NCBI GenBank assembly: GCA_903845115.1 | Contig: CAIMWE010000123.1 | Coordinates: 1,345-65,344, forward strand | From: an uncultured Acidobacteriota bacterium | GTDB taxonomy: Bacteria > Acidobacteriota > Thermoanaerobaculia > UBA5066 | DNA length: 64,000 nucleotides | Reading direction: 5' to 3' | Shown: positions 7,304-43,533 of the stretch, in pieces | Layout: each line of letters starts with the position of its first letter | How positions within the stretch are numbered: position 1 is the stretch's first letter | Program-made: the position numbers and the translations under genes | Notes under the pieces: model-generated | What the model saw: the letters and a program-made list of their open reading frames with translations, nothing else | Database searches by the model: none | What the model was told of the DNA's origin: nothing

Positions 7304-7358
7304 CGCCCGGAGCGCGGCGCCTCTCGCCCGTTCCGGGGGCTGCTAAACTCCGCCCCTC

Positions 7359-8444
7359 GTGAAGGGACTCATTCTCTCCGGCGGGAAGGGCACGCGCCTC
7401 AGGCCGCTCACCTACACCTCCGCCAAGCAGCTCGTCCCGGTGGCGAACAAGCCGGTCCTCTTCTACGGCATCGAGTCGCTCGTGTCGGCCGGGATCCGGG
7501 AGATCGGCATCGTCGTGGGGGACACCCACGCCGAGATCGAGGCCGCGGTGGGCGACGGCTCGCGCTTCGGGGCGAGGGTCACCTACATTCCCCAGGACGC
7601 CCCGCGCGGGCTGGCGCACGCGGTCCTCATCGCCGAGCCGTTCCTCCGCGGATCGCGGTTCGTCATGTACCTCGGCGACAACCTCCTGCAGCGGGGGATC
7701 ACCGCCCTCGTCGAGGAGTACCTGCAGCTCGGAGTCGACTGCGAGATCCTGCTGACCCGGGTCCCGAACCCCTCCTCGTTCGGGGTGGCGGAGCTGGACG
7801 CGACGGGGCGCGTGGCGCGCCTCGTGGAGAAGCCGAAGGAGCCTCGGTCCGACCTCGCGCTGGTCGGCGTCTACCTCTTCAACGAGACCGTCTTCGACGC
7901 GGTGAAGGCGATCCAGCCTTCGCCCCGCGGGGAGCTGGAGATCACCGACGCGATCCAGTGGCTCGTCGACCACGGCCGGAGCGTCCACGCCCACCTCGTC
8001 TCGGGGTGGTGGAAGGACACCGGCAAGGCCGAGGACATGCTGGAGGCGAACCGGACCGTCCTGGACGGCCTGGAGGACCACCGCGGGACCGCCACGGTCG
8101 ACTCGTCGAGCCGCGTCGAGGGGAAGGTCGTCTTCGAGGGGCCGCCCGGATCGGTCGTCCTCGTCGACTCCGTCGTCCGGGGGCCCGCCGTGATCGGAGA
8201 AGGGAGCCGCATCGAGCGGAGCTTCGTCGGCCCGTACACCGCGATCGCGGCCGGCTGCCGGCTGAACCGCGTGGAGATCGAAAACTCGATCGTCTGGGAG
8301 GGGTCGACCCTCGAGGACGTCTCGCTCAGGATCTCGGACTCGCTGATCGGGCGCGGCGTCGTGATCCGGCGCGACCCGGAGCGCAAGCCGAAGGCCCACC
8401 GCTTCCTCGTGGGGGATGCCTCCGAGGTCGGCATCGGCGAGTGA
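7359..8444 (+). CDS. Glucose-1-phosphate thymidylyltransferase, long form with a C-terminal left-handed beta-helix
   Basis: MKGLILSGGKGTRLRPLTYTSAKQLVPVANKPVLFYGIE is the sugar-nucleotidyltransferase signature. The C-terminus has hexapeptide repeats. Confidence 0.8.
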   Translation: MKGLILSGGKGTRLRPLTYTSAKQLVPVANKPVLFYGIESLVSAGIREIGIVVGDTHAEIEAAVGDGSRFGARVTYIPQDAPRGLAHAVLIAEPFLRGSRFVMYLGDNLLQRGITALVEEYLQLGVDCEILLTRVPNPSSFGVAELDATGRVARLVEKPKEPRSDLALVGVYLFNETVFDAVKAIQPSPRGELEITDAIQWLVDHGRSVHAHLVSGWWKDTGKAEDMLEANRTVLDGLEDHRGTATVDSSSRVEGKVVFEGPPGSVVLVDSVVRGPAVIGEGSRIERSFVGPYTAIAAGCRLNRVEIENSIVWEGSTLEDVSLRISDSLIGRGVVIRRDPERKPKAHRFLVGDASEVGIGE

Positions 8445-30312: not shown

Positions 30313-30396
30313 GCCGTCGCCGTCCGTCGACCGGTTTTGAATTCGAGGCGCCGATCTCCTAGACTTCGCGCCCTCGGTGCTGGGAGGAGGTCCCGT

Positions 30397-31383
30397 GTGA
30401 CTTGGTGGACAGGCAAGAGGGTGCTCGTGACGGGCGGAACGGGGTTCCTCGGATCCGTCGTGGTCGGGAAGCTCCGTCGGCGCGGCGCGGCCGAGGTCTT
30501 CGCCCCCCGATCCCGTGAGTTCGACCTGACGCGGAGGGAGGACGTCGAGCGGTGCCTCGACGCGTCCCGGCCCGACGTCGTCATCCACGCGGCCGCGAAG
30601 GTGGGGGGGATCGGCGCGAACCGGCTGCACCCCGGCTCGTTCTTCCGGGACAACGCGCTGATGGGAATCCACCTGATCGAGGCCTGCCGGCTCCGGGCCC
30701 GGCGCCATCGCCTCTCGCGGTTCGTCTGCCTCGGGACCATCTGCGCCTATCCGAAGTTCACGCCCGTCCCGTTCCGCGAGGAGGACCTGTGGAACGGCTA
30801 TCCGGAGGAGACGAACGCGCCGTACGGGATCGCCAAGAAGGCCCTTCTCGTGATGCTGCAGGGGTATCGCGAGGAGTACGGGTTCTCGGGGACCTACCTC
30901 CTTCCGGTGAACCTGTACGGCCCGGGGGACAACTTCGACCCCGAGTCGAGCCACGTCATCCCCGCGATGATCCGGAAATTCGTGGAGGCGCGGGAGGCCG
31001 GACGGGACGAGGTGACTCTGTGGGGGGACGGAAGCCCGACCCGCGAGTTCCTCTACGTGGACGACGCCGCGGAGGGGATCCTGGCGGCCGCCGAGCGGTA
31101 CGACGGGGCCGACCCGGTCAACCTCGGGAGCGGCGAGGAGATCTCGATCCACGATCTCGCCGAGACGGTCCGGAAGGCGGCCGGGTTCGGCGGCCGGCTC
31201 GCGTGGGACGTCTCGAAGCCCAACGGCCAGCCGCGGCGGAGGCTGGACGTCTCGAGGGGCCGCGAGCTGTTCGGGTGGAGCGCCTCCACGCCGATGGCCG
31301 AAGGGCTCCGGGAGACCGTCGCGTGGTTCGAGGCCCACAGGCCCGAGAAGGCCGCCCCCGCGGCGAACGTCCATGGCGGCTGA
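30397..31383 (+). CDS. fcl: GDP-L-fucose synthase (GDP-4-keto-6-deoxymannose 3,5-epimerase/4-reductase)
   Basis: SD GGAGGAGG upstream of the [21 protein letters not shown] and [24 protein letters not shown] are hallmarks of Fcl/WcaG. Confidence 0.85.
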
Positions 31384-36294: not shown

Positions 36295-36936
36295 TTGGAC
36301 GCAGGAATCGCGATCGACGACGAGGACGTGAGGCGCACCCTGCGCGCGTGGATCGAGGCCAGCATCCCGCCCCTTCACGGCTGGGCCACCGTGGAGAAGG
36401 GGCTCGCGCTGGCGGAGCTCGTGTACGCGACGCGCGCCGAGTCCTCCGTCGAGATCGGGGTGTTCGGGGGCCGCGGGACGATCTCCATGGCGCTCGGCCA
36501 CCGGGCGGCCGGCCGGGGCGTGGTCACGGCCATCGACCCGTGGGAAGCCGGAGCGGCGCTCGAGGGGGAGAACTCTCCCGAGAACGACGAGTGGTGGCAG
36601 AAGATCGACTACGAGGAGATCTTCCAGCATTTCGTCGGCGCCCTCGAGGCGTGCGGCCTGTCCGGGCAGTGCCGGATCCTCCGGAAGCGCTCCCACGATG
36701 CCGTGACGCTCTTCGAGGACGAAAGCATTTCCGTGCTCCACCAGGACGGCAACCACTCGGAGAAGGTCTCTTGCGCCGAAGTGCAGTCGTGGGGCCCGAA
36801 GGTCGGCCCTGGCGGGTACTGGGTCGCCGACGACACCGACTGGCCGACCACCCGGCGCGCCCAGGAGATGCTCCTGGAAAGGGGATTCCGGGTGATCGAG
36901 GACCGCGGCGCCTGGCGCGTCTACCAGAAGCCGTGA
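36295..36936 (+). CDS. Class I SAM-dependent methyltransferase, Methyltransf_24 (TylF/CmcI-like) family
   Basis: VEIGVFGGRGTISMALG (SAM-binding glycine-rich loop) and VLHQDGNHSEKVSCAEV, which fits the hxDGDHsye pattern of this family. The start codon is uncertain (a TTG at 36295 or a GTG at 36328). Confidence 0.6.
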   Translation: MDAGIAIDDEDVRRTLRAWIEASIPPLHGWATVEKGLALAELVYATRAESSVEIGVFGGRGTISMALGHRAAGRGVVTAIDPWEAGAALEGENSPENDEWWQKIDYEEIFQHFVGALEACGLSGQCRILRKRSHDAVTLFEDESISVLHQDGNHSEKVSCAEVQSWGPKVGPGGYWVADDTDWPTTRRAQEMLLERGFRVIEDRGAWRVYQKP

Positions 36937-36938
36937 CG

Positions 36939-37997
36939 ATGGTCGGGGCGTTCGGGGCCTGGATCGGGGACCGCATCTCGCGCCTTCGGGCGGAGCGTCG
37001 GAAACGGGCGCCGCTCTCCTCGTGGGACACCGGCCTCAGCGTCGTCTACGTCACCCGTCGCGCCGAGCCGCGCTTCGACTGGTTCGCCGATAGCCTGGCT
37101 TCCCAGCTAGGCGGAGAGGAGAGCCTCGAGGTCGTCTTCGTGGACGGGTTTCACTCCGCCGGGAGGTCGGCGGCCCTCGCAGGGATCGTGCGTGGCCGCT
37201 TTCCCTACCGGCACGTCCCCCCCAAGCCCTCCCCGTTGAGCGGCCCCTACAGGCTGACGGCGCGGGAATATTTCGCGGCTGCGAGCGCGCGCAACACGGG
37301 GATCGTCTACGCCCGGCACCCGTACGTCGTCTTCGTCGACGACGTATCGGTCCTCCTCCCGGGCTGGTGGAAGGAGGTTCGCCGGGCTGCGAGGCTCCGG
37401 TACGTGGTTGCCGGCGCCTACCAGAAACACTTCGAGATGACCGTGGAGGACGGCCTCCTCGTCGCGAGCCGGTCGGAGCCAGCCGGGATCGACTCGCGCT
37501 GGGCCCTGGGCGATTCCGGGGGCCTGGTTCCCATCCCGGGCGGCCAGCTGTACGGCTCGAGCGTCGGGGTGCCGCGGGACGCCCTCCTCGCCGTCAACGG
37601 CTTCGACGAGCTCTGCGACTCGGCCGGGGGCGAGGACTACCAGCTCGGAGTGCGACTGGAGTGGGCCGGGGAAGCGATCTACTACAGCCGCGCGATGCTG
37701 ACGGTCGAGAGCGAGGAGCTTCACCGGCAGGGCGCCGCTCTCGGTGGCATCGATCGCACGCTGGACGAGGCCGCCTACATGAGCTTGCTCAGGACGTTCG
37801 GGGTGGGGCGCCGCACGACTGACGGCCCGCGCGAGATGGGCTTCATGGTCCTCGACATCCTCTACGGGACGCATTCGGTCCGGTCCCTGGGCAACTCCTA
37901 CTCCCTCGCGGAGCTCCGGGAGGAGGATCTTCCCGGTCTCGTCGAAAGGTTCCCCCGCCGCCACTGGTTCACGGGCGAGGCCCTCTCCGACCTATGA
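36939..37997 (+). CDS. Hypothetical protein, possibly a GT-A-like nucleotide-sugar transferase
   Basis: 352 aa. VVFVDGFHS and HPYVVFVDDVSVLLPGWW, two hydrophobic-D-D style segments, and FDELCDSAGGEDYQLGVRLEW. Weak assignment. Confidence 0.35.
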   Translation: MVGAFGAWIGDRISRLRAERRKRAPLSSWDTGLSVVYVTRRAEPRFDWFADSLASQLGGEESLEVVFVDGFHSAGRSAALAGIVRGRFPYRHVPPKPSPLSGPYRLTAREYFAAASARNTGIVYARHPYVVFVDDVSVLLPGWWKEVRRAARLRYVVAGAYQKHFEMTVEDGLLVASRSEPAGIDSRWALGDSGGLVPIPGGQLYGSSVGVPRDALLAVNGFDELCDSAGGEDYQLGVRLEWAGEAIYYSRAMLTVESEELHRQGAALGGIDRTLDEAAYMSLLRTFGVGRRTTDGPREMGFMVLDILYGTHSVRSLGNSYSLAELREEDLPGLVERFPRRHWFTGEALSDL

Positions 37998-38917
37998 GGC
38001 CGCAGGCCCTCCACCGGCGGATCGTCTCGCGAGGGGACCTGCCGGGAAGCGACGGCGGGATCTACAACCCCGCGGCGGTCCCGGCTGGCTCCGCGATCCT
38101 CCTGCTGTGTCGCCGGGAGATCGACTACCGATTCACCGCCCGGGTCCACCCGGAGGCGATCCTCGTCGATCCCGACTCCTTCGCCGTCCTGCGTCACTGG
38201 ACGCTCCAGAAACGGGGCTTCCCCCGGTCTTCCCGCGTGGAGGACTTCCGGCTCCTCGCGCACCGGGACGAGCTCCTCGTCGTCCACACCCTCGTCACGG
38301 AGGACCGGATCAAGCCCGTGATCTCCCGCGTCTCGGGCAGGCGGCTGGAGCTGTTCGACGAGCTCGAGCTCCCCGTGGCGATCGACCGCGTGGAGAAGAA
38401 CTGGGTCCTCTTCGAGCGGGGAGGGACGATCCACTGCCTCTACCGGCTCGACCCCCTCACGATCTTCGCCAGGAAGCGGCGCGGATCGTGGACTCTCGTC
38501 CGGCGGGAGCCGAGCGGCTGGTCGGGCGAGCTCGAAGGCGGGCTGAGCAACTCCACCAACCTCATCCCGTTCATGGACGGATTCCTGGGCTTCTGGCACA
38601 CGCGGCTCCACGGACGGTACGTCCAGGGCGCCTTCCTCCTCGACGCCGACCTGCGGCTCCGGTTTCGGACGGGCGTGCTGCTCGACGGCGCCGACGTCCG
38701 AGAGGGGTTCAAGCCGGGCGTTCTCTACGTCAGCGCCCTCGTCGAGCATCGGGGGACGATCCTCGCGTTCTACGGCGAGGGAGACGCCCACACGAGCGTC
38801 GCGATCTTCGACGCCCGGGAGCTCGAGGACGAGCTCCGGCGTTCCCCGTCGGCGGGCGAAGGCCCTGCGCCGGACGGCGGGTTCCGGTCCTGGTGCCCTG
38901 TCTGCGACCTGCGCTAG
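37994..38917 (+). CDS. Hypothetical protein of unknown family; paralogous to the C-terminal domain of the 41413..43533 protein
   Basis: Shared motif blocks with the GT2-TPR protein C-terminus: GIYNPAAV..ILLLCRRE vs LACNPSIL..YLVNCRAV, EKNWVLFE vs QKNWLPFVE, H.RLHGRYVQGAFLLD vs HGIRYYLHRFLLLD. Confidence 0.5.
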   Translation: MRPQALHRRIVSRGDLPGSDGGIYNPAAVPAGSAILLLCRREIDYRFTARVHPEAILVDPDSFAVLRHWTLQKRGFPRSSRVEDFRLLAHRDELLVVHTLVTEDRIKPVISRVSGRRLELFDELELPVAIDRVEKNWVLFERGGTIHCLYRLDPLTIFARKRRGSWTLVRREPSGWSGELEGGLSNSTNLIPFMDGFLGFWHTRLHGRYVQGAFLLDADLRLRFRTGVLLDGADVREGFKPGVLYVSALVEHRGTILAFYGEGDAHTSVAIFDARELEDELRRSPSAGEGPAPDGGFRSWCPVCDLR

Positions 38918-38956: not shown

Positions 38957-39766
38957 CTACCTTCCGGCGTCGCCCCCCCGCCCGCCGGGCCTCCTCGGCA
39001 TTCCCGCGATCAGCGCGCGGGCGGCCCCGTCCGCCTCTCCCCGAGCCCCCTTGAGAGCCTCTGCCCGTATCGCGGCGAGACGGAGCGTCCGGGAAGCGAG
39101 GTCGAGGCGCTGCCGGCCCGCCAGGGCGAAGCTGAGGAGCTCGAGGAGGGCTTCCCCGGCCGACAGCTTCGTCGGATTCCACGCCGCCCCGGGACGGTGC
39201 CTGAGGACGGCGATCCTTCCCACCGGGAGGGGGCGCGCGGGCACTCGTGCCCCGAGGGACTCGTGGCCGACGCGCAGGAAGCCGTCCCTCCGGAGCACGA
39301 TGGGGCGGGCGTAGGGGTGGGCCCGGCCCTGTTCGTCGATCACGGCGAACTCGTCCGAGAGGTACTCGGCGCCGGCACGCAGCAGAGCCGCGACGAGCTC
39401 GCTCTTGCCGCTGCCCGACCGTCCGGGCAGGAGGATGGCCTGGCCGTTCCACGCGACCGCCCCCGCGTGCACGAAGACGAGCCCCTCGGCGCGGCATGCG
39501 AGGAACCGCTCCACGTCGTCGACGACGAGGTCCGCGGCGACGGCGGCGGTGGGCGCGTTCAGCACGAGGCGGGCGCCCCGGCGGACGGCCATTCCCGGAC
39601 GGGCGCCGTCATCGTCCCTCACGGCGTAGCGCCGGTCCGCCGGGGCCGCCGGAGACAGCGCCTCCACCGGCGGCAGCCGGGCGGAGAGGAGCGGCCAGAA
39701 CGAGGCGTCGGGCGCGTCGACCCTCAACGCGACACCGAAGAGCCGGAACGTGGTCCGCTCGGGCAA
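38957..39766 (-). CDS. HPr-kinase/phosphorylase C-terminal-domain-like P-loop kinase (lasso-peptide-kinase-like)
   Basis: GRSGSGKSE Walker A in the HprK-like context (AILLPGRSGSGKSELVAALLRAGAEYLSDEFAVID). No N-terminal HprK regulatory domain. 269 aa. Confidence 0.7.
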   Translation of the reverse strand: MPERTTFRLFGVALRVDAPDASFWPLLSARLPPVEALSPAAPADRRYAVRDDDGARPGMAVRRGARLVLNAPTAAVAADLVVDDVERFLACRAEGLVFVHAGAVAWNGQAILLPGRSGSGKSELVAALLRAGAEYLSDEFAVIDEQGRAHPYARPIVLRRDGFLRVGHESLGARVPARPLPVGRIAVLRHRPGAAWNPTKLSAGEALLELLSFALAGRQRLDLASRTLRLAAIRAEALKGARGEADGAARALIAGMPRRPGGRGGDAGR

Positions 39767-39773
39767 GGCCGCG

Positions 39774-40955
39774 TCAGGCCGCCCGCCAGCGAAGGCGGGA
39801 GCGGATCTTCTTCAGGAGCGCGAGGGGGAGCTCTCTCTCCTGGTGCAGGCCCCACATCTCCCGCAGGTACGTCGGGAACGCCCGGATCCGCTCTCCGAGG
39901 GGAAGGGCTTTCAGCTCCCCGGACGAGGCGCGCCAGTGGAGGAAGACCCCTCGGAGCAGCGACGGCCGCCGCATTCGCGAAGCGACCTCCAGGCGGCGGC
40001 GCCACCCGCGGGAATGCCGCCGGAGGTTCGCCAGGACCTCGGTCGGCACGGCGGCGCCGAACTCCGACCCCAGGAAATTCAGCGCAAGCAGGAGGGGGAG
40101 GCAGAGGTCCCGGGCGCGCGCCTCGGAGACGAGAACGTCCCAGTCGAGGGCCGCGGGCTCGCGCCGGAGGAGGAGGACGGCGTCGGCGACCCAGTGTACG
40201 GGGGGGACGGGGCTCCATCGAAGGCCGTGCACGCACACGGACAGGAGATGGTCGGCCGGCGACAGGGTCCAGGCCCTCACGTCGCCCGAGACGAAGGGGA
40301 CGCTCCGGGCGAGAAAGCCCGCGTCGGCCCCTCCGGCACACGACTCCATCAGTGCGTGCCGGTGAAGGTCGACCTCCATCGGCGCCGGACCCGCGAAAGC
40401 TTGGCCGTGAAGATGGAGCATCCGGGACGCGGGCTCTCGCGCCACCGCTCGCCACCCCTCGGCCTCGAGGCAGCCCACGGCGGCGCCGAATTCTCCCTCG
40501 GGGACGAGAAGGTCGACGTCCCCCATGGGCCGCAGCGCCCGGTGGGGATAGACGAGCGCGGCGAGGGCGAGGCCTTTGATCACGACCACCCGGCTGACGA
40601 CCCGCGACAGCGAACCGATCAGCGATGCGGCCGCATCGGCGATCCCCTCCTGCTGGACCCAGGCTTCCTCCACGGTCCCGGGCCTTCCCGTCGCGGTGCC
40701 CGCCGCCAGGATCCCCAGCCTCCTGAGGTTCCACTCTGCCAGCGGAAGGAGGCGGCGCGCCGGACCCGAGGGGGGGCTCCCCCCGGCCAGCAACCACCGG
40801 TCCCAGGCGTTGCCGGCTCCTTCGCCCTCGAACAGGCCGGCCCGCAGGAGGTCGAGATCCGAGCCGCCTGGCCGGGTTCCCCGCGGCTCCGATATACTGG
40901 CCACGTTCGAGCGAATGAGACCCGCTCCATCGTGCGGGAACACGGAGGACGGCAT
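39774..40955 (-). CDS. Nucleotidyltransferase-family protein of the PF14907 (RiPP/lasso-associated NTase) type
   Basis: 393 aa with the hG[GS]/DxD NTase core (PMGDVDLLVPEG). Size and layout fit PF14907. It sits 8 nt upstream of the HprK-like gene on the same strand. Assignment is by pattern memory. Confidence 0.6.
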   Translation of the reverse strand: MPSSVFPHDGAGLIRSNVASISEPRGTRPGGSDLDLLRAGLFEGEGAGNAWDRWLLAGGSPPSGPARRLLPLAEWNLRRLGILAAGTATGRPGTVEEAWVQQEGIADAAASLIGSLSRVVSRVVVIKGLALAALVYPHRALRPMGDVDLLVPEGEFGAAVGCLEAEGWRAVAREPASRMLHLHGQAFAGPAPMEVDLHRHALMESCAGGADAGFLARSVPFVSGDVRAWTLSPADHLLSVCVHGLRWSPVPPVHWVADAVLLLRREPAALDWDVLVSEARARDLCLPLLLALNFLGSEFGAAVPTEVLANLRRHSRGWRRRLEVASRMRRPSLLRGVFLHWRASSGELKALPLGERIRAFPTYLREMWGLHQERELPLALLKKIRSRLRWRAA

Positions 40956-41382
40956 GACCGTATCGTACCCGAGGGCCCGCCGCGTCGGTCTGAGGACCGA
41001 GACGCTCCTCGACGAGTTGCTCGTCTACGACCTCGCCAAGAAGAAGGCTCACTGCCTCAACGCGACGGCGGCGTGCGTCTACCAGCTCGCGGACGGAACG
41101 CGTTCGACGAAGGTCCTCGCCAAGGAGCTCTCGGAGCGCTTCGGAACCCCGGCTGGCGAGGACCTCGTCTGGTACTGCCTGGACGAGCTCGGGCGCCAGG
41201 GACTCCTGGAGTCGGGCCAGGCGGAGACGTCGAAGGTGGTGGTCCCGTCGCGCCGCCACCTGCTGACCCGCCTCGGAATCGCGGCCGCCGTTCTCCCGGT
41301 CGTCCTCTCCGTGGCGCTGCCTCGTCCGGCGTCGGCTCAGCTGCGGAGCCCCGGGCCGACGGGCACTCCCATCCCCGACTAG
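40936..41382 (+). CDS. PqqD-family protein (RiPP recognition element-like) with an unusual C-terminal extension
   Basis: TETLLDELLVYDLAKKKAHCLNATAACVYQLADGTRSTKVLAKELSERFGTPAGEDLVWYCLDELGRQGLLE matches the PqqD/RRE winged-helix pattern (LxxYD...hxLNxxAxxIWxL.DG..T...L). Track coordinates are used. The ATG I read lies about 18 nt later, where it shares a CATG with the divergent NTase start. Confidence 0.65.
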   Translation, partial: GNTEDGMTVSYPRARRVGLRTETLLDELLVYDLAKKKAHCLNATAACVYQLADGTRSTKVLAKELSERFGTPAGEDLVWYCLDELGRQGLLESGQAETSKVVVPSRRHLLTRLGIAAAVLPVVLSVALPRPASAQLRSPGPTGTPIPD

Positions 41383-41412: not shown

Positions 41413-43533
41413 ATGACCCGGGAATCGCGCGCCTCGAGGGAACCGTCCCCGCCGCCCAGGGTCTGCCTCTGCATGATCGTCCGGAACGAGAAGCGAGTCC
41501 TCCGGCGCTGCCTCGACGCGGCCGGGCCGATCGTCGACGCGGTCAGCCTCTGCGACACCGGGTCGGACGACGGGACGCCGGAGATCGCGACCGCGTGGCT
41601 CGCCGAACGGTCCGTTCCGGGGCGCGTTCACCGCCACGTCTTCCGCAACTTCGGCCGCAACCGGACCCTCGCGGCCGAAGCGGCCCGCCGGACGATGCTC
41701 GGCCTCGGCTGGGACCTCGAGACGAGCTACCTCCTCTTCCTGGACGCCGACATGGTCCTCGAGATCGCGCCGTCGTTCCGGGCGAAGTCGCTCGGGGCGG
41801 ACGTCTACCGCGTCTTCCAGCGGAACGGCCGGTATCTCTACCCGAACGTCCGCCTGGTCCGCGCGAGCCTTCTCGGGCGTTTCCTGGGGGCCACCCACGA
41901 GTTCTTCCAGCCTCCACCGGGGACGCGGCAGCGGACTCTCGAGACGCTCTCCATCGACGACCGGTCGGACGGGGGGTTTCGCGCCCAGAAGCTCGAGAGG
42001 GACCGCAGGCTCCTCCTGGCGGAACTCCGCGCGAGGCCGCGGGACACGCGGGCCATGTTCTATCTCGCGCAGACCTTTCGGGACCGGCTGGAATGGGACG
42101 ACGCCCTCCGCTGGTATCGAAAGCGCATCGGAGCCGCGGTAGGGGCCGAAGAGGTCTGGTACTCCCACTACGCGAGCGGTCTCATCCAGCTGCGAAGGGG
42201 AGACACCCGGGCCGCGGTCTCGAGCCTCCACCGGGCGATCCGTCTCGATCCCTCGCGAGCCGAGCCCTACTACTACCTGGCCGGCTACCTGGCCGCCCGC
42301 GGGCGCTTCCTCTTCGCGGCGCGACTCGCCCGGCGCGGGGCAGCGCTCCCGATGCCCCGGAACCGCTCTCTGTTCCTGGAACCTGACGTCTACCGGTGGG
42401 GGCTTCTCTCCGAGTTCGCCCGGCTGGCCTACTTCACGCGGCTCCGCGACGCGGGGCTCGAGGTAAACGAACGGCTGGTCCTGGGCGCCGGCACTCCCGC
42501 CGACGCGGTGGAGCGGGCGAAGGGAAACGCCGTCCTGTATGCGCGGCCCCTGCCCGACGCCACCTACCTCGAGCTCACGCCCAAGCTGCCCGCCGGCTAC
42601 CTCGCCTGCAACCCCAGCATCCTCAGGACGACGAGCGGGTACCTCGTGAACTGCCGCGCCGTCAGCTACCGGCTCGACGAGTCCCAGCGCTATCACTCCC
42701 GGAGGCCGGACGGTGCGCTCCGGACCCGCAACTTCCTCCTCCGGACGGACCGTTCGCTCCGTTCCCTCGAGCAGCAAGAGCTCCGCTGCCGCGAGCGGCC
42801 GTTGCGCCCCAGCCACGTTCGGGGGCTCGAGGACTGCCGGATCTTCCGGCTGGGCGGGTCCCTCGCCGCCACGTGCACGACGGCCGAGCTCCACCCGGCG
42901 GGCCCGGCGCGCATGTCGCTGGTCCGGTTCGACCGCGACCTCGGGCTCGTCCGGCACCTGCCCCTCACCGGCTACCGGGACGCCCTCCCCCAGAAGAACT
43001 GGCTTCCTTTCGTGGAACCGGCCACCGGCGACCTCCAGGCGGTTTACGGCCTTGCGCCGTTCGTCACGCTTCGGATCGACCCCGCGAGCGGCGTGTGCGA
43101 GCCCACGAGGGAACGAGCCGAGCCCAGGCCCTTCGGGGACTTTCGCGGTTCCGCCGGGCCCGTCGACCTGCCCCGGCCGCTCGGCGGCGGCCGACTGCTG
43201 CTCGTCCACGAGGTGGCGTTCCACGGCATCCGCTATTACCTGCACCGCTTCCTGCTGCTGGATCGGGGCTGGCGGGTCACTCGCGTGTCACGCCCGTTCT
43301 TCTTCCACCACCGGGGGATCGAGTTCGCGAGCGGCGCCTGCGTCGCCCACGGAGGGAGGGACCTCCTCGTGACGCTCGGCGTCGAGGACCGGGAGGCCTG
43401 GATCTGTCGCGTCTCCCTCCGCTCCGTCCTCGCCTCCCTGCGCCCGCTCCCCGACGCTGAAGAATTCCCAGGGAGCGGAGAGGTAGCGGCGGGCGGAGCC
43501 CGACGCGCAGGGGAACCGGAGGGGTTCCCCTGA
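41413..43533 (+). CDS. Multidomain protein: SunS-like GT2 glycosyltransferase, TPR-like helical region, and an about 330-aa unknown C-terminal domain
   Basis: N-terminus CLCMIVRNEKRVLRRCLDAAGPIVDAVSLCDTGSDDGT...FLDADM is the GT-A DxD, comparable to the glycocin glycosyltransferase SunS (GIIVYNE...CLNS..., FIDADN). TPR-like helices (AMFYLAQTFRDRLEWDDALRWYRKRI; EPYYYLAGYLAARG). The C-terminal domain is a paralog of 37994..38917. Confidence 0.65.
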   Translation: MTRESRASREPSPPPRVCLCMIVRNEKRVLRRCLDAAGPIVDAVSLCDTGSDDGTPEIATAWLAERSVPGRVHRHVFRNFGRNRTLAAEAARRTMLGLGWDLETSYLLFLDADMVLEIAPSFRAKSLGADVYRVFQRNGRYLYPNVRLVRASLLGRFLGATHEFFQPPPGTRQRTLETLSIDDRSDGGFRAQKLERDRRLLLAELRARPRDTRAMFYLAQTFRDRLEWDDALRWYRKRIGAAVGAEEVWYSHYASGLIQLRRGDTRAAVSSLHRAIRLDPSRAEPYYYLAGYLAARGRFLFAARLARRGAALPMPRNRSLFLEPDVYRWGLLSEFARLAYFTRLRDAGLEVNERLVLGAGTPADAVERAKGNAVLYARPLPDATYLELTPKLPAGYLACNPSILRTTSGYLVNCRAVSYRLDESQRYHSRRPDGALRTRNFLLRTDRSLRSLEQQELRCRERPLRPSHVRGLEDCRIFRLGGSLAATCTTAELHPAGPARMSLVRFDRDLGLVRHLPLTGYRDALPQKNWLPFVEPATGDLQAVYGLAPFVTLRIDPASGVCEPTRERAEPRPFGDFRGSAGPVDLPRPLGGGRLLLVHEVAFHGIRYYLHRFLLLDRGWRVTRVSRPFFFHHRGIEFASGACVAHGGRDLLVTLGVEDREAWICRVSLRSVLASLRPLPDAEEFPGSGEVAAGGARRAGEPEGFP

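Follow-up and report, generated by a model that had tools for sequence, protein, structure and literature searches.

Enzymes of the GH130 and GT108 families are inverting, use a single Asp as the proton donor, and make or break β-mannosidic bonds with a phosphate- or nucleotide-activated sugar. GH130 members are usually treated as catabolic phosphorylases and hydrolases and, to our knowledge, the accepted transferases of this fold are the eukaryotic GT108 enzymes only, plus a weak side activity of GH130 β-1,2 phosphorylases reported in 2025. Here, we describe two regions predicted to have this fold in a 64,000-nucleotide stretch of contig CAIMWE010000123.1 from an uncultured Acidobacteriota bacterium (the whole stretch is called the window below). 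One is a free-standing protein of 307 residues (37994–38917, + strand), and the other is the last third (residues ~385–690) of a 706-residue GT2-TPR protein (41413–43533, + strand), referred to as the fused domain or X domain. Both genes belong to a seven-gene cluster, in which the two domains probably add sugars during the building of a glycan that is tied to a peptide-phosphorylation system.

The functional residues of GH130 are given here in UhgbMP numbering: D104 is the proton donor, R168 and H231 bind phosphate, and R59, Y103, R150, and D304 form the +1 subsite (PMC7660257, Table 2). In this family, a Y/R pair goes with β-1,4 linkages, E/R with β-1,3, and E/K with β-1,2, and the phosphate-binding Arg/His pair is kept in >90% of the phosphorylase groups; the hydrolases have no Arg/His pair and a second carboxylate, and their characterized members carry signal peptides (PMC7660257). 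GH130 β-1,2 and some β-1,3 phosphorylases show weak transferase activity that depends on GDP-mannose (GDP-Man), and the GT108 enzymes are true transferases with the propeller fold (PMC12814180). They use GDP-Man, and the presence of the pocket Arg alone does not predict phosphorylase activity among them (PMC10913872).

Three further genes of the cluster, encoding a RiPP (peptide that is ribosomally synthesized and then modified post-translationally) recognition element (RRE) protein, an HprK-like kinase, and a PF14907 nucleotidyltransferase, belong to the same three protein families as the sets for pseudomycoidin (paeninodin-like lasso peptides) and LPP peptides, although none of the three reaches its NCBIfam equivalog cutoff. 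Pseudomycoidin is phosphorylated on a C-terminal Ser by the HprK-like kinase, and this phosphate receives one or two hexoses from the PF14907 enzyme (PMC8498205). The LPP family comprises an RRE plus an HprK-like kinase, an NTP transferase, a SpI-like peptidase, and an exporter; the core is polyphosphorylated at Ser3, the nucleotidyltransferase is inactive without unknown partners, and the clusters are embedded among polysaccharide genes whose glycosyltransferases have an unknown role (PMC13381572). Unlike these systems, the seven-gene cluster encodes no lasso cyclase, B2 protease, SpI-like peptidase, or exporter, and its host is not a member of the Bacillota. No leader motif of the LPP type (YxxPxVLxHQ or [Y/W]xxP) was found in the six frames of the whole window. 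A literature search found no paper joining GH130 and RiPPs, and no report of GH130-like proteins in clusters of the LPP or pseudomycoidin type.

Homology and predicted fold of the two propeller regions

The first-pass annotation of the window had noted block-wise similarity between the 307-residue protein and the end of the GT2-TPR protein, and had described it as the duplication of a domain that it was unable to assign to a known family. BLASTP of one protein against the other gave no significant match (best E = 1.5), so that on a strict pairwise test the value lies above the limit of 1e-3 that the annotation had set for its claim. Conversely, comparisons at the family level were clearly significant. 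We collected 108 relatives of the 307-residue protein and 19 of the last 346 residues in the GT2-TPR protein and aligned both sets; hhalign of one family against the other aligned 254 columns at 20% identity (probability 97.9%, E = 6.3e-13), with all four proposed blocks (NP, (E/Q)KNW, RY..LLD, and G.(G/E)D) in one register. When every stop-to-stop open reading frame (ORF) in the six frames of the whole window was searched with a hidden Markov model (HMM) built from 37 relatives of the 307-residue protein, the GT2-TPR ORF was detected with E = 2.8e-7 (24 bits, 170 HMM positions); the only other match was the protein's own ORF, and no third copy was found. The free-standing protein and the fused X domain are homologous, if distant, relatives, as had been claimed. 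Chance similarity, or a composition effect of a genome with 70% G+C, would agree with the BLASTP value, but we give it practically no weight, since it is already refuted by both family-level E-values, by the motifs standing in register, and by the common fold and common PDB neighbors of the two models described below.

An identity of ~20% points to an ancient relationship and rules out a recent duplication within the locus; the word "duplication" thus does not describe the two copies, which behave as independent modules. They are two old, separate branches of the GH130/GT108 superfamily with a common (E/Q)KNW signature.

The 307-residue protein matched PF04041 (GH130) with E = 6e-5 and 22.5 bits, below the gathering cutoff of 26 bits, and many of its 108 relatives are annotated as COG2152 "GH43/DUF377 family glycosyl hydrolase" or carry PF04041, with many in each case. 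The fused domain has no match in Pfam or NCBIfam. Against the PDB, the profile of the free-standing family detected solved GH130 enzymes with E = 4e-7 over its last ~90 residues only; a profile of its N-terminal half found no PDB match, nor did a single Chloroflexota relative used as the query. The HMMER profile of the fused domain, from which TPR columns had been removed because the untrimmed alignment drew TPR proteins only, had no relevant match in the PDB. Since HMMER was unable to align the N-terminal halves, we used hhalign against five full-length annotated GH130 genes from plasmids, a homolog search from a 96-residue GH130 fragment having returned only fragments of at most 167 residues. 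The free-standing family aligned to these five with a probability of 98.0% and E = 2.5e-13 over 252 columns, and the fused family with a probability of 74.8% and E = 2.6e-5 over 201 columns; the free-standing family also aligned to an independent set of GH130 C-terminal fragments (E = 8.7e-10).

AlphaFold2 predicted both regions as all-β, five-bladed β-propellers (predicted local distance difference test score 92.1 and predicted template modeling score 0.89 for the free-standing protein; 89.3 and 0.87 for the fused domain). In Foldseek searches of the PDB, the top 20–35 matches were all GH130 enzymes for both models and formed the same list, which includes the β-1,2-mannobiose phosphorylase Lin0857, UhgbMP, Teth514_1788, Uhgb_MS, TM1225, RaMP1/2, and BfMGP, with best E-values of 4e-13 (free-standing) and 1e-9 (fused). 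They were followed by the Leishmania GT108 mannosyltransferases MTP1, MTP2, and MTP4 (E = 5e-9 and 1e-6, respectively). By predicted fold and profile–profile alignment, both domains are divergent members of the GH130/GT108 β-propeller superfamily. The first-pass annotation had ventured a GH130/GT-like β-rich fold, a guess that proved correct. The domain can now be placed, and its identity as such is unsurprising. A housekeeping family was rejected as the identity of the two domains.

The likeness to the GH130 β-1,2 phosphorylases (Lin0857, 5B0P/5B0Q; Teth514_1788, 9FJ8/9GPH; Uhgb_MS, 9ERG) and to UhgbMP (4UDG) extends from the five-bladed propeller to the single Asp donor within (E/Y)D(P)R, the (K/R)(N/D) motif followed by LF, the H..Y..LLD and G.xD motifs with their His and Asp, the cytoplasmic location and, for the β-1,2 subfamilies, the E/K pair. 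Unlike in GH130, the identity to which is just 13–19%, KN is followed by an invariant Trp in both window families, the phosphate-binding Arg varies in the free-standing family and is missing from the fused family, and the gene context in the window is biosynthetic. The GT2-TPR-propeller fusion also lies outside the CAZy list of multimodular GH130 proteins, which holds GH130–GT81 and GH130–GH130 only (PMC7660257). The GT108 enzymes (Leishmania MTP1, MTP2, and MTP4; 6Q4W, 6Q4X, and 6Q50) share the fold and provide a precedent for its use as a GDP-Man-dependent inverting β-1,2-mannosyltransferase in a biosynthetic role, and in the strict transferases among them the Arg of the phosphate pocket is replaced. 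They differ from the window proteins in being eukaryotic, single-domain enzymes that make storage mannan, and their Foldseek match is weaker than that of GH130.

One of 84 diverse fused-domain representatives, P0249 (822 residues; two tandem copies of a helical region plus the X domain), gave a sub-threshold match to PF12141 (GT91, fungal Bmt β-1,2-mannosyltransferases), with 23.4 bits against a cutoff of 28.3, in its first copy over the EKNWLPF region. GT91 is without a solved structure, and a prediction from 2021 gave it a novel fold (PMC8476585). The possible link between GT91 and the propeller family is a lead only.

Predicted active-site residues

In the hhalign alignments, R59 of UhgbMP corresponds to R40 in the free-standing protein and R415 in the fused domain (full-protein numbering), Y103/D104 to E83-D84 and E473-D474, R150 to K135 and K528, R168 to R151 and G546, H231 to H202 and H599, and D304 to D264 and D659. 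The key residues are thus N25-P26, R40, E83-D84-x-R86, E134-K135-N136-W137, R151, H202, Y209, and D264 in the free-standing protein, and N400-P401, R415, E473-D474-x-R476, K528-N529-W530, G546, H599, Y609, H611-R612, E637, and D659 in the fused domain. The proton-donor Asp of GH130 is kept in an ED.R motif in both domains, and the putative donors are D84 (nucleotides 38243–38245) and D474 (nucleotides 42832–42834). Both also have the Glu/Lys pair that marks β-1,2 specificity in GH130 (E83/K135 and E473/K528), which would predict a β-1,2-type specificity.

These residues are strongly conserved. Among 37 sequences of the free-standing family, D84 was found in 36/36 (one row was gapped), K135 in 37/37, H202 in 36/37, and D264 in 37/37; among the 84 representatives of the fused family, the donor Asp was found in 84/84, Lys in 83/84, Asn, Trp, and His each in 84/84, and the last Asp in 81/84. 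R612 and E637 are invariant in these 84 sequences and specific to the fused family, and the alignment places these two polar residues near the active-site strands. The residue mapping and the conservation suggest that both domains are active enzymes of the E/K (β-1,2) type. The first-pass annotation had offered "a substrate-binding or second catalytic module"; the catalytic option is the better one, since the residues for catalysis and sugar binding in GH130 do not vary within either family, and a pure substrate-binding role is disfavored.

The phosphate-binding pair was kept less evenly. Its His is present in both domains (H202 and H599), and its Arg in the free-standing protein of the window, with Gly546 at this position in the fused domain. 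Position 151 of the free-standing family is Arg in 14 sequences, Lys in 5, Ser in 10, and another residue in 8 (n = 37); in the fused family, it is Ser in 41 sequences and Gly in 13, and Arg is not among the residues listed (n = 84). By its residues, the fused domain appears unlike a phosphorylase, and the free-standing protein could be a phosphorylase or not. Neither protein has a signal peptide or a transmembrane or hydrophobic segment, and with respect to the features of GH130 hydrolases (GH130_3), a signal peptide is missing and the His is kept in both families.

At its C-terminus (38843–38917), the last ~25 residues of the window's free-standing protein are disordered and end in CPVC. Most relatives have 360–400 residues with a conserved C-terminal extension of ~80 residues (PF..LRVRYEG.SMGDLFRAM...) that is missing here; in its place, this protein and the two relatives closest to it have a short disordered tail bearing CPxC (CPVC, CPIC, and CPTC).

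Gene neighborhoods and proposed function

A profile of the fused domain was searched against 1.84 billion representative proteins (clusters at 50% identity), and matched 6157 clusters at E ≤ 1e-3, of which 1591 reached E ≤ 1e-30. Their lengths run from ~300 residues (stand-alone) to >1200 residues, and some proteins have two copies. A Pfam scan of the 84 representatives found TPR in at least 29, GT2 in 10, and PF04041 (at E ≤ 1e-3) in only 4, and single relatives carry FkbM and other methyltransferases, GT17, or HtrL. The fused-domain family is thus large, typically biosynthetic, without a Pfam or NCBIfam model, and spread well beyond this locus.

For the free-standing family, one genome per species was scanned, and the resulting 26 loci were profiled by tblastn with the seven cluster proteins. 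The 16 distinct close loci are from Burkholderiales/Casimicrobiaceae-like metagenome-assembled genomes (MAGs), some of them under other phylum labels. A GT2 gene adjoins the propeller gene in all 16 and a Methyltransf_24 gene is present in 15, the exception being truncated by a contig end; apart from this truncated locus, the methyltransferase–GT2–propeller trio is conserved throughout. The fusion of GT2-TPR with the X domain, the HprK-like kinase, and the long form of the PqqD-like protein occur together in 4 of the 16 loci, in addition to the window, and PF14907 in three of these four. In the other 12, the free-standing gene stands without the kinase and nucleotidyltransferase genes and without the fused domain. 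The fused domain was therefore found in 5/5 loci having the kinase, the window included, and in 0/12 lacking it. This profile indicates that the fused domain tracks the kinase system and that the free-standing gene tracks the methyltransferase and GT2 genes, so only one of the two follows the neighboring kinase/nucleotidyltransferase/RRE triad. A domain specific to this system, as first proposed, is ruled out by the size of the fused family with its many architectures and by the loci without the triad.

Other variants of the cluster have added genes for a pyruvyl transferase, GT25, and FkbM, which are glycan-tailoring enzymes. Two Chloroflexota/Anaerolineae MAGs encode distant propellers of the EKNW type beside tailoring genes: locus L024 (3700–11000) contains PqqD, an HprK-like kinase, an ABC exporter, PF14907, and two GT2s, and locus L026 (4800–12100) contains FkbM, Methyltransf_24, three sulfotransferase-like genes, GT2, and PF14907, with the propeller gene overlapping the PF14907 gene by 4 nucleotides (translational coupling). 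These neighborhoods support a recurrent functional link.

GmaR is a Listeria GT2-TPR protein that acts as a flagellin O-GlcNAc transferase, and a GT2 plus TPR layout is likewise found in the first two thirds of the fusion protein. In the PDB, this part matched GmaR (22ao_A) with E = 1.4e-6 over ~50 residues of the GT2 core only, the 204-residue chain 22ao_A spanning just the GT2 N-terminus, and gave a weak match to 7msk_A, a "Glyco_trans_2-like domain-containing protein" (E = 0.0096).

On this evidence, we lean toward both regions being catalytically competent, cytoplasmic, inverting glycosyl-transfer modules of β-mannosyl type that act in glycan assembly. By analogy with the characterized enzymes of this fold, they would transfer β-linked mannose-type residues, probably in β-1,2 linkage, during the assembly of a methylated glycan. 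The kinase/nucleotidyltransferase/RRE set would prime an acceptor containing Ser/Thr, likely the product of the HprK-like kinase/PF14907/PqqD system, with a phosphorylated Ser and a sugar on the phosphate, as in pseudomycoidin and the LPP peptides, on which this proposal is modeled. The GT2 domain of the fusion protein may then put a sugar on a protein or peptide bound by the TPR region. Since the fused domain has no phosphorylase Arg and is joined to a GmaR-like GT2-TPR part, it would most likely extend this sugar with β-mannosyl-type residues from a nucleotide sugar, in the manner of GT108. The methyltransferase–GT2–propeller trio would extend or branch, and methylate, the same or a related glycan; because the window's free-standing protein retains the Arg/His pair, it may also use mannose-1-phosphate, like dual glycosyltransferase/phosphorylase GH130 enzymes. 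Which sugar is transferred, in which linkage, and from which donor to which acceptor is in each case inferred.

Several points weigh against this proposal. Neither window sequence is a GH130 member by Pfam's own threshold, the free-standing protein lying below the cutoff and the fused domain having no match, and the identity of the sugar, the linkage, and the donor are extrapolated from GH130 and GT108 enzymes at 13–19% identity; both branches are known from sequence and models. The seven-gene cluster contains no GDP-mannose synthesis gene; the nearest sugar-nucleotide genes lie at 7.3 kb (RmlA-type) and 30.3 kb (Fcl-like). Nor does the cluster have a gene of its own for a precursor peptide, or one for an exporter or a leader peptidase. 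With 12 of the 16 related loci lacking the kinase or nucleotidyltransferase, the link between the free-standing gene and the triad is loose. In addition, since the Arg/His switch does not by itself predict phosphorylase or transferase activity in GT108, the missing Arg of the fused domain is only suggestive.

The free-standing protein might alternatively be an ordinary catabolic or recycling β-1,2-mannoside phosphorylase, leaving only the fused domain biosynthetic. By alignment, it has the full set of D84, K135, R151, H202, and D264; it is cytoplasmic, and its closest solved relatives, like most characterized GH130 enzymes, are phosphorylases. However, its family has Arg in only 14/37 and Lys in 5/37 sequences at a position that belongs to a pair kept in >90% of GH130 phosphorylase groups (PMC7660257), the gene is translationally coupled to GT2 and methyltransferase genes across the 16 related loci, and the cluster contains no sugar transporter, isomerase, or phosphomannomutase, which makes this alternative unlikely in our view. 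A glycoside hydrolase that trims or edits the glycan, like the β-1,2-mannosidases of GH130 subfamily 3, is more improbable still. The missing Arg of the fused domain does mirror the GH130 hydrolases (PMC7660257), and a hydrolase-type Parabacteroides GH130 in our alignment also lacks it, but the signal peptide that serves as a hydrolase criterion is absent (PMC7660257), the phosphate-binding His that is missing in hydrolases is invariant or nearly so in both families, and by inspection no conserved acidic residue stands at the position of the hydrolase base, a position that was not rigorously mapped.

We give as little credence to one or both domains being non-catalytic carbohydrate- or substrate-binding modules that hold a glycan or peptide for the GT2 domains. 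Such a module would suit a fusion to TPR and GT2 parts and a fused domain without the phosphate-binding Arg. Against it, the donor Asp, the ED.R and KNW motifs, the His, and the sugar-binding Asp are near-invariant across the 84 and 37 sequences, a pattern typical of enzymes, and R612 and E637, near the active-site strands, are invariant as well. Glycosyl transfer by both domains thus remains the reading that we favor.

A wider reading is possible but doubtful: the X domain may define a very large family of bacterial glycosyltransferases with the GH130 fold, corresponding in prokaryotes to GT108 (and perhaps to GT91), which would build β-mannoside chains together with a GmaR-like GT2-TPR part on a phosphorylated, Ser/Thr-rich peptide tail. 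The acceptor tail may in that case be the C-terminus of the PqqD-like protein itself, with RRE, leader, and core in one polypeptide. If so, this would be a class of phospho-glycopeptide. Apart from this wider reading, a GH130-like domain that has no phosphorylase Arg, is fused to a GT2-TPR glycosyltransferase, and belongs to a family of thousands of clusters would make dedicated bacterial glycosyltransferases of the propeller fold common rather than exceptional, with concrete candidate proteins at hand. The finding also suggests possible partners for the PF14907 nucleotidyltransferase in HprK/RRE systems. The interest for the field of carbohydrate-active enzymes lies in the open question of whether dedicated bacterial glycosyltransferases of GH130 type exist (PMC12814180). 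If the two domains are ordinary phosphorylases, the finding shrinks to an improved annotation.

Organization of the cluster and its variants

The window has a G+C content of ~70%, so lists of ORFs in six frames are crowded, and coding ORFs were picked by a frame plot of G+C at third codon positions (GC3). Public contigs with identical sequence have the same gene calls, including the ORF at 37994–38917. The gene order is secD, secF, Methyltransf_24, GT2, the 307-residue propeller protein, the HprK-like kinase (− strand), the PF14907 nucleotidyltransferase (− strand), the PqqD-like protein, GT2-TPR, a dicarboxylate symporter, a VTT-domain protein, and relA/spoT. Of these, the seven genes between secF and the dicarboxylate symporter gene, set among housekeeping genes, form the unit considered here, and gene names were backed by Pfam and NCBIfam matches.

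The conserved trio begins with a class I S-adenosylmethionine-dependent methyltransferase of the Methyltransf_24 family (36295–36936, +; PF13578, E = 4e-16), followed by a small GT2 glycosyltransferase (36939–37997, +; PF00535) whose stop overlaps the start of the propeller gene by 4 nucleotides (ATGA); the propeller gene itself has a GC3 of 0.92. On the opposite strand lie the gene of a protein like HprK-related kinase A (38957–39766, −), with a match to TIGR04352 below the cutoff (E = 1.4e-16) and a weak one to PF07475, and that of the 376-residue NTP_transf_5 nucleotidyltransferase (39774–40904, −; PF14907, E = 6e-30). The PqqD-like RRE protein (142 residues; 40954–41382, +) has weak matches to TIGR04353/PF05402. 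The GT2-TPR gene, for which gene callers give a start at 41473, encodes an N-terminal GT2 (GT-A) and TPR region (41413–42561, +; PF00535 and several TPR families), with a DxD motif at D111-A-D113, and then the X domain (~residues 385–685; 42562–43467, +). In the mechanical ORF list, a 268-residue PqqD ORF (40576–41382, +) overlaps the nucleotidyltransferase ORF (39774–40955, −). Homologs and the gene calls for identical contigs place the true starts at 40954 (PqqD) and 40904 (nucleotidyltransferase), which leaves a divergent promoter region of ~50 bp between the two genes.

A search of the window for GDP-mannose genes found an RmlA-type NTP_transferase at 7347–8444 and, at 30337–31383 (+), an Fcl-like short-chain dehydrogenase/reductase (GDP-L-fucose-synthase-like; 303 bits for NCBIfam Fcl against a cutoff of 500 bits). 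An ORF for a GT1-family glycosyltransferase (~29.1–30.3 kb) lies directly upstream of the latter, and aceK and secDF stand between this pair and the seven-gene cluster. The pair might supply a GDP-sugar or be unrelated.

In the PqqD-like protein, the RRE domain is followed by a conserved segment, SRRxLLxKLGxAAxxPLVLSxxVPxPAxAQ, which combines a twin Arg, a hydrophobic stretch, and an AxA-like site and weakly matches a twin-arginine translocation signal (E = 0.0096). The C-terminal tail is short and variable, rich in Ser/Thr/Pro/Gly (LRSPGPTGTPIPD in the window; SILTIT, TGATAG, and SATL in relatives); the loci compared were L002 (5851–6252), L030 (5979–6314), L031 (5779–6171), and L003 (7681–7956, −). 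A locus with a short PqqD has a separate 91-residue ORF in which a Ser/Pro-rich stretch, a transmembrane helix, and RRRRDR come after a similar segment. Judged by its sequence, the extension could be a tail anchor, or a leader and core fused to their own RRE, that is, the missing substrate.

At least nine of the 12 loci without the kinase have a shorter, divergently transcribed GT2-TPR gene without the X domain, and at least one of them also has a short PqqD. In L003/L018, L005, L006, and L009–L017, the trio is kept, GT2-TPR-X is replaced by a propeller-less GT2-TPR, and the kinase and nucleotidyltransferase are missing; the neighborhood of L003 includes an aminotransferase, a PrpD-like gene, and a gene for a PEP-CTERM-domain protein. 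L004, L007, and L008 have a nearly identical cluster architecture with ~60% identical proteins, under labels (Acidobacteria, Vicinamibacterales, and "uncultured Bifidobacterium sp.") that stand alongside the Burkholderiales/Casimicrobiaceae MAGs. The occurrence of the cluster under such varied labels suggests mis-binning, mislabeling, or horizontal transfer.

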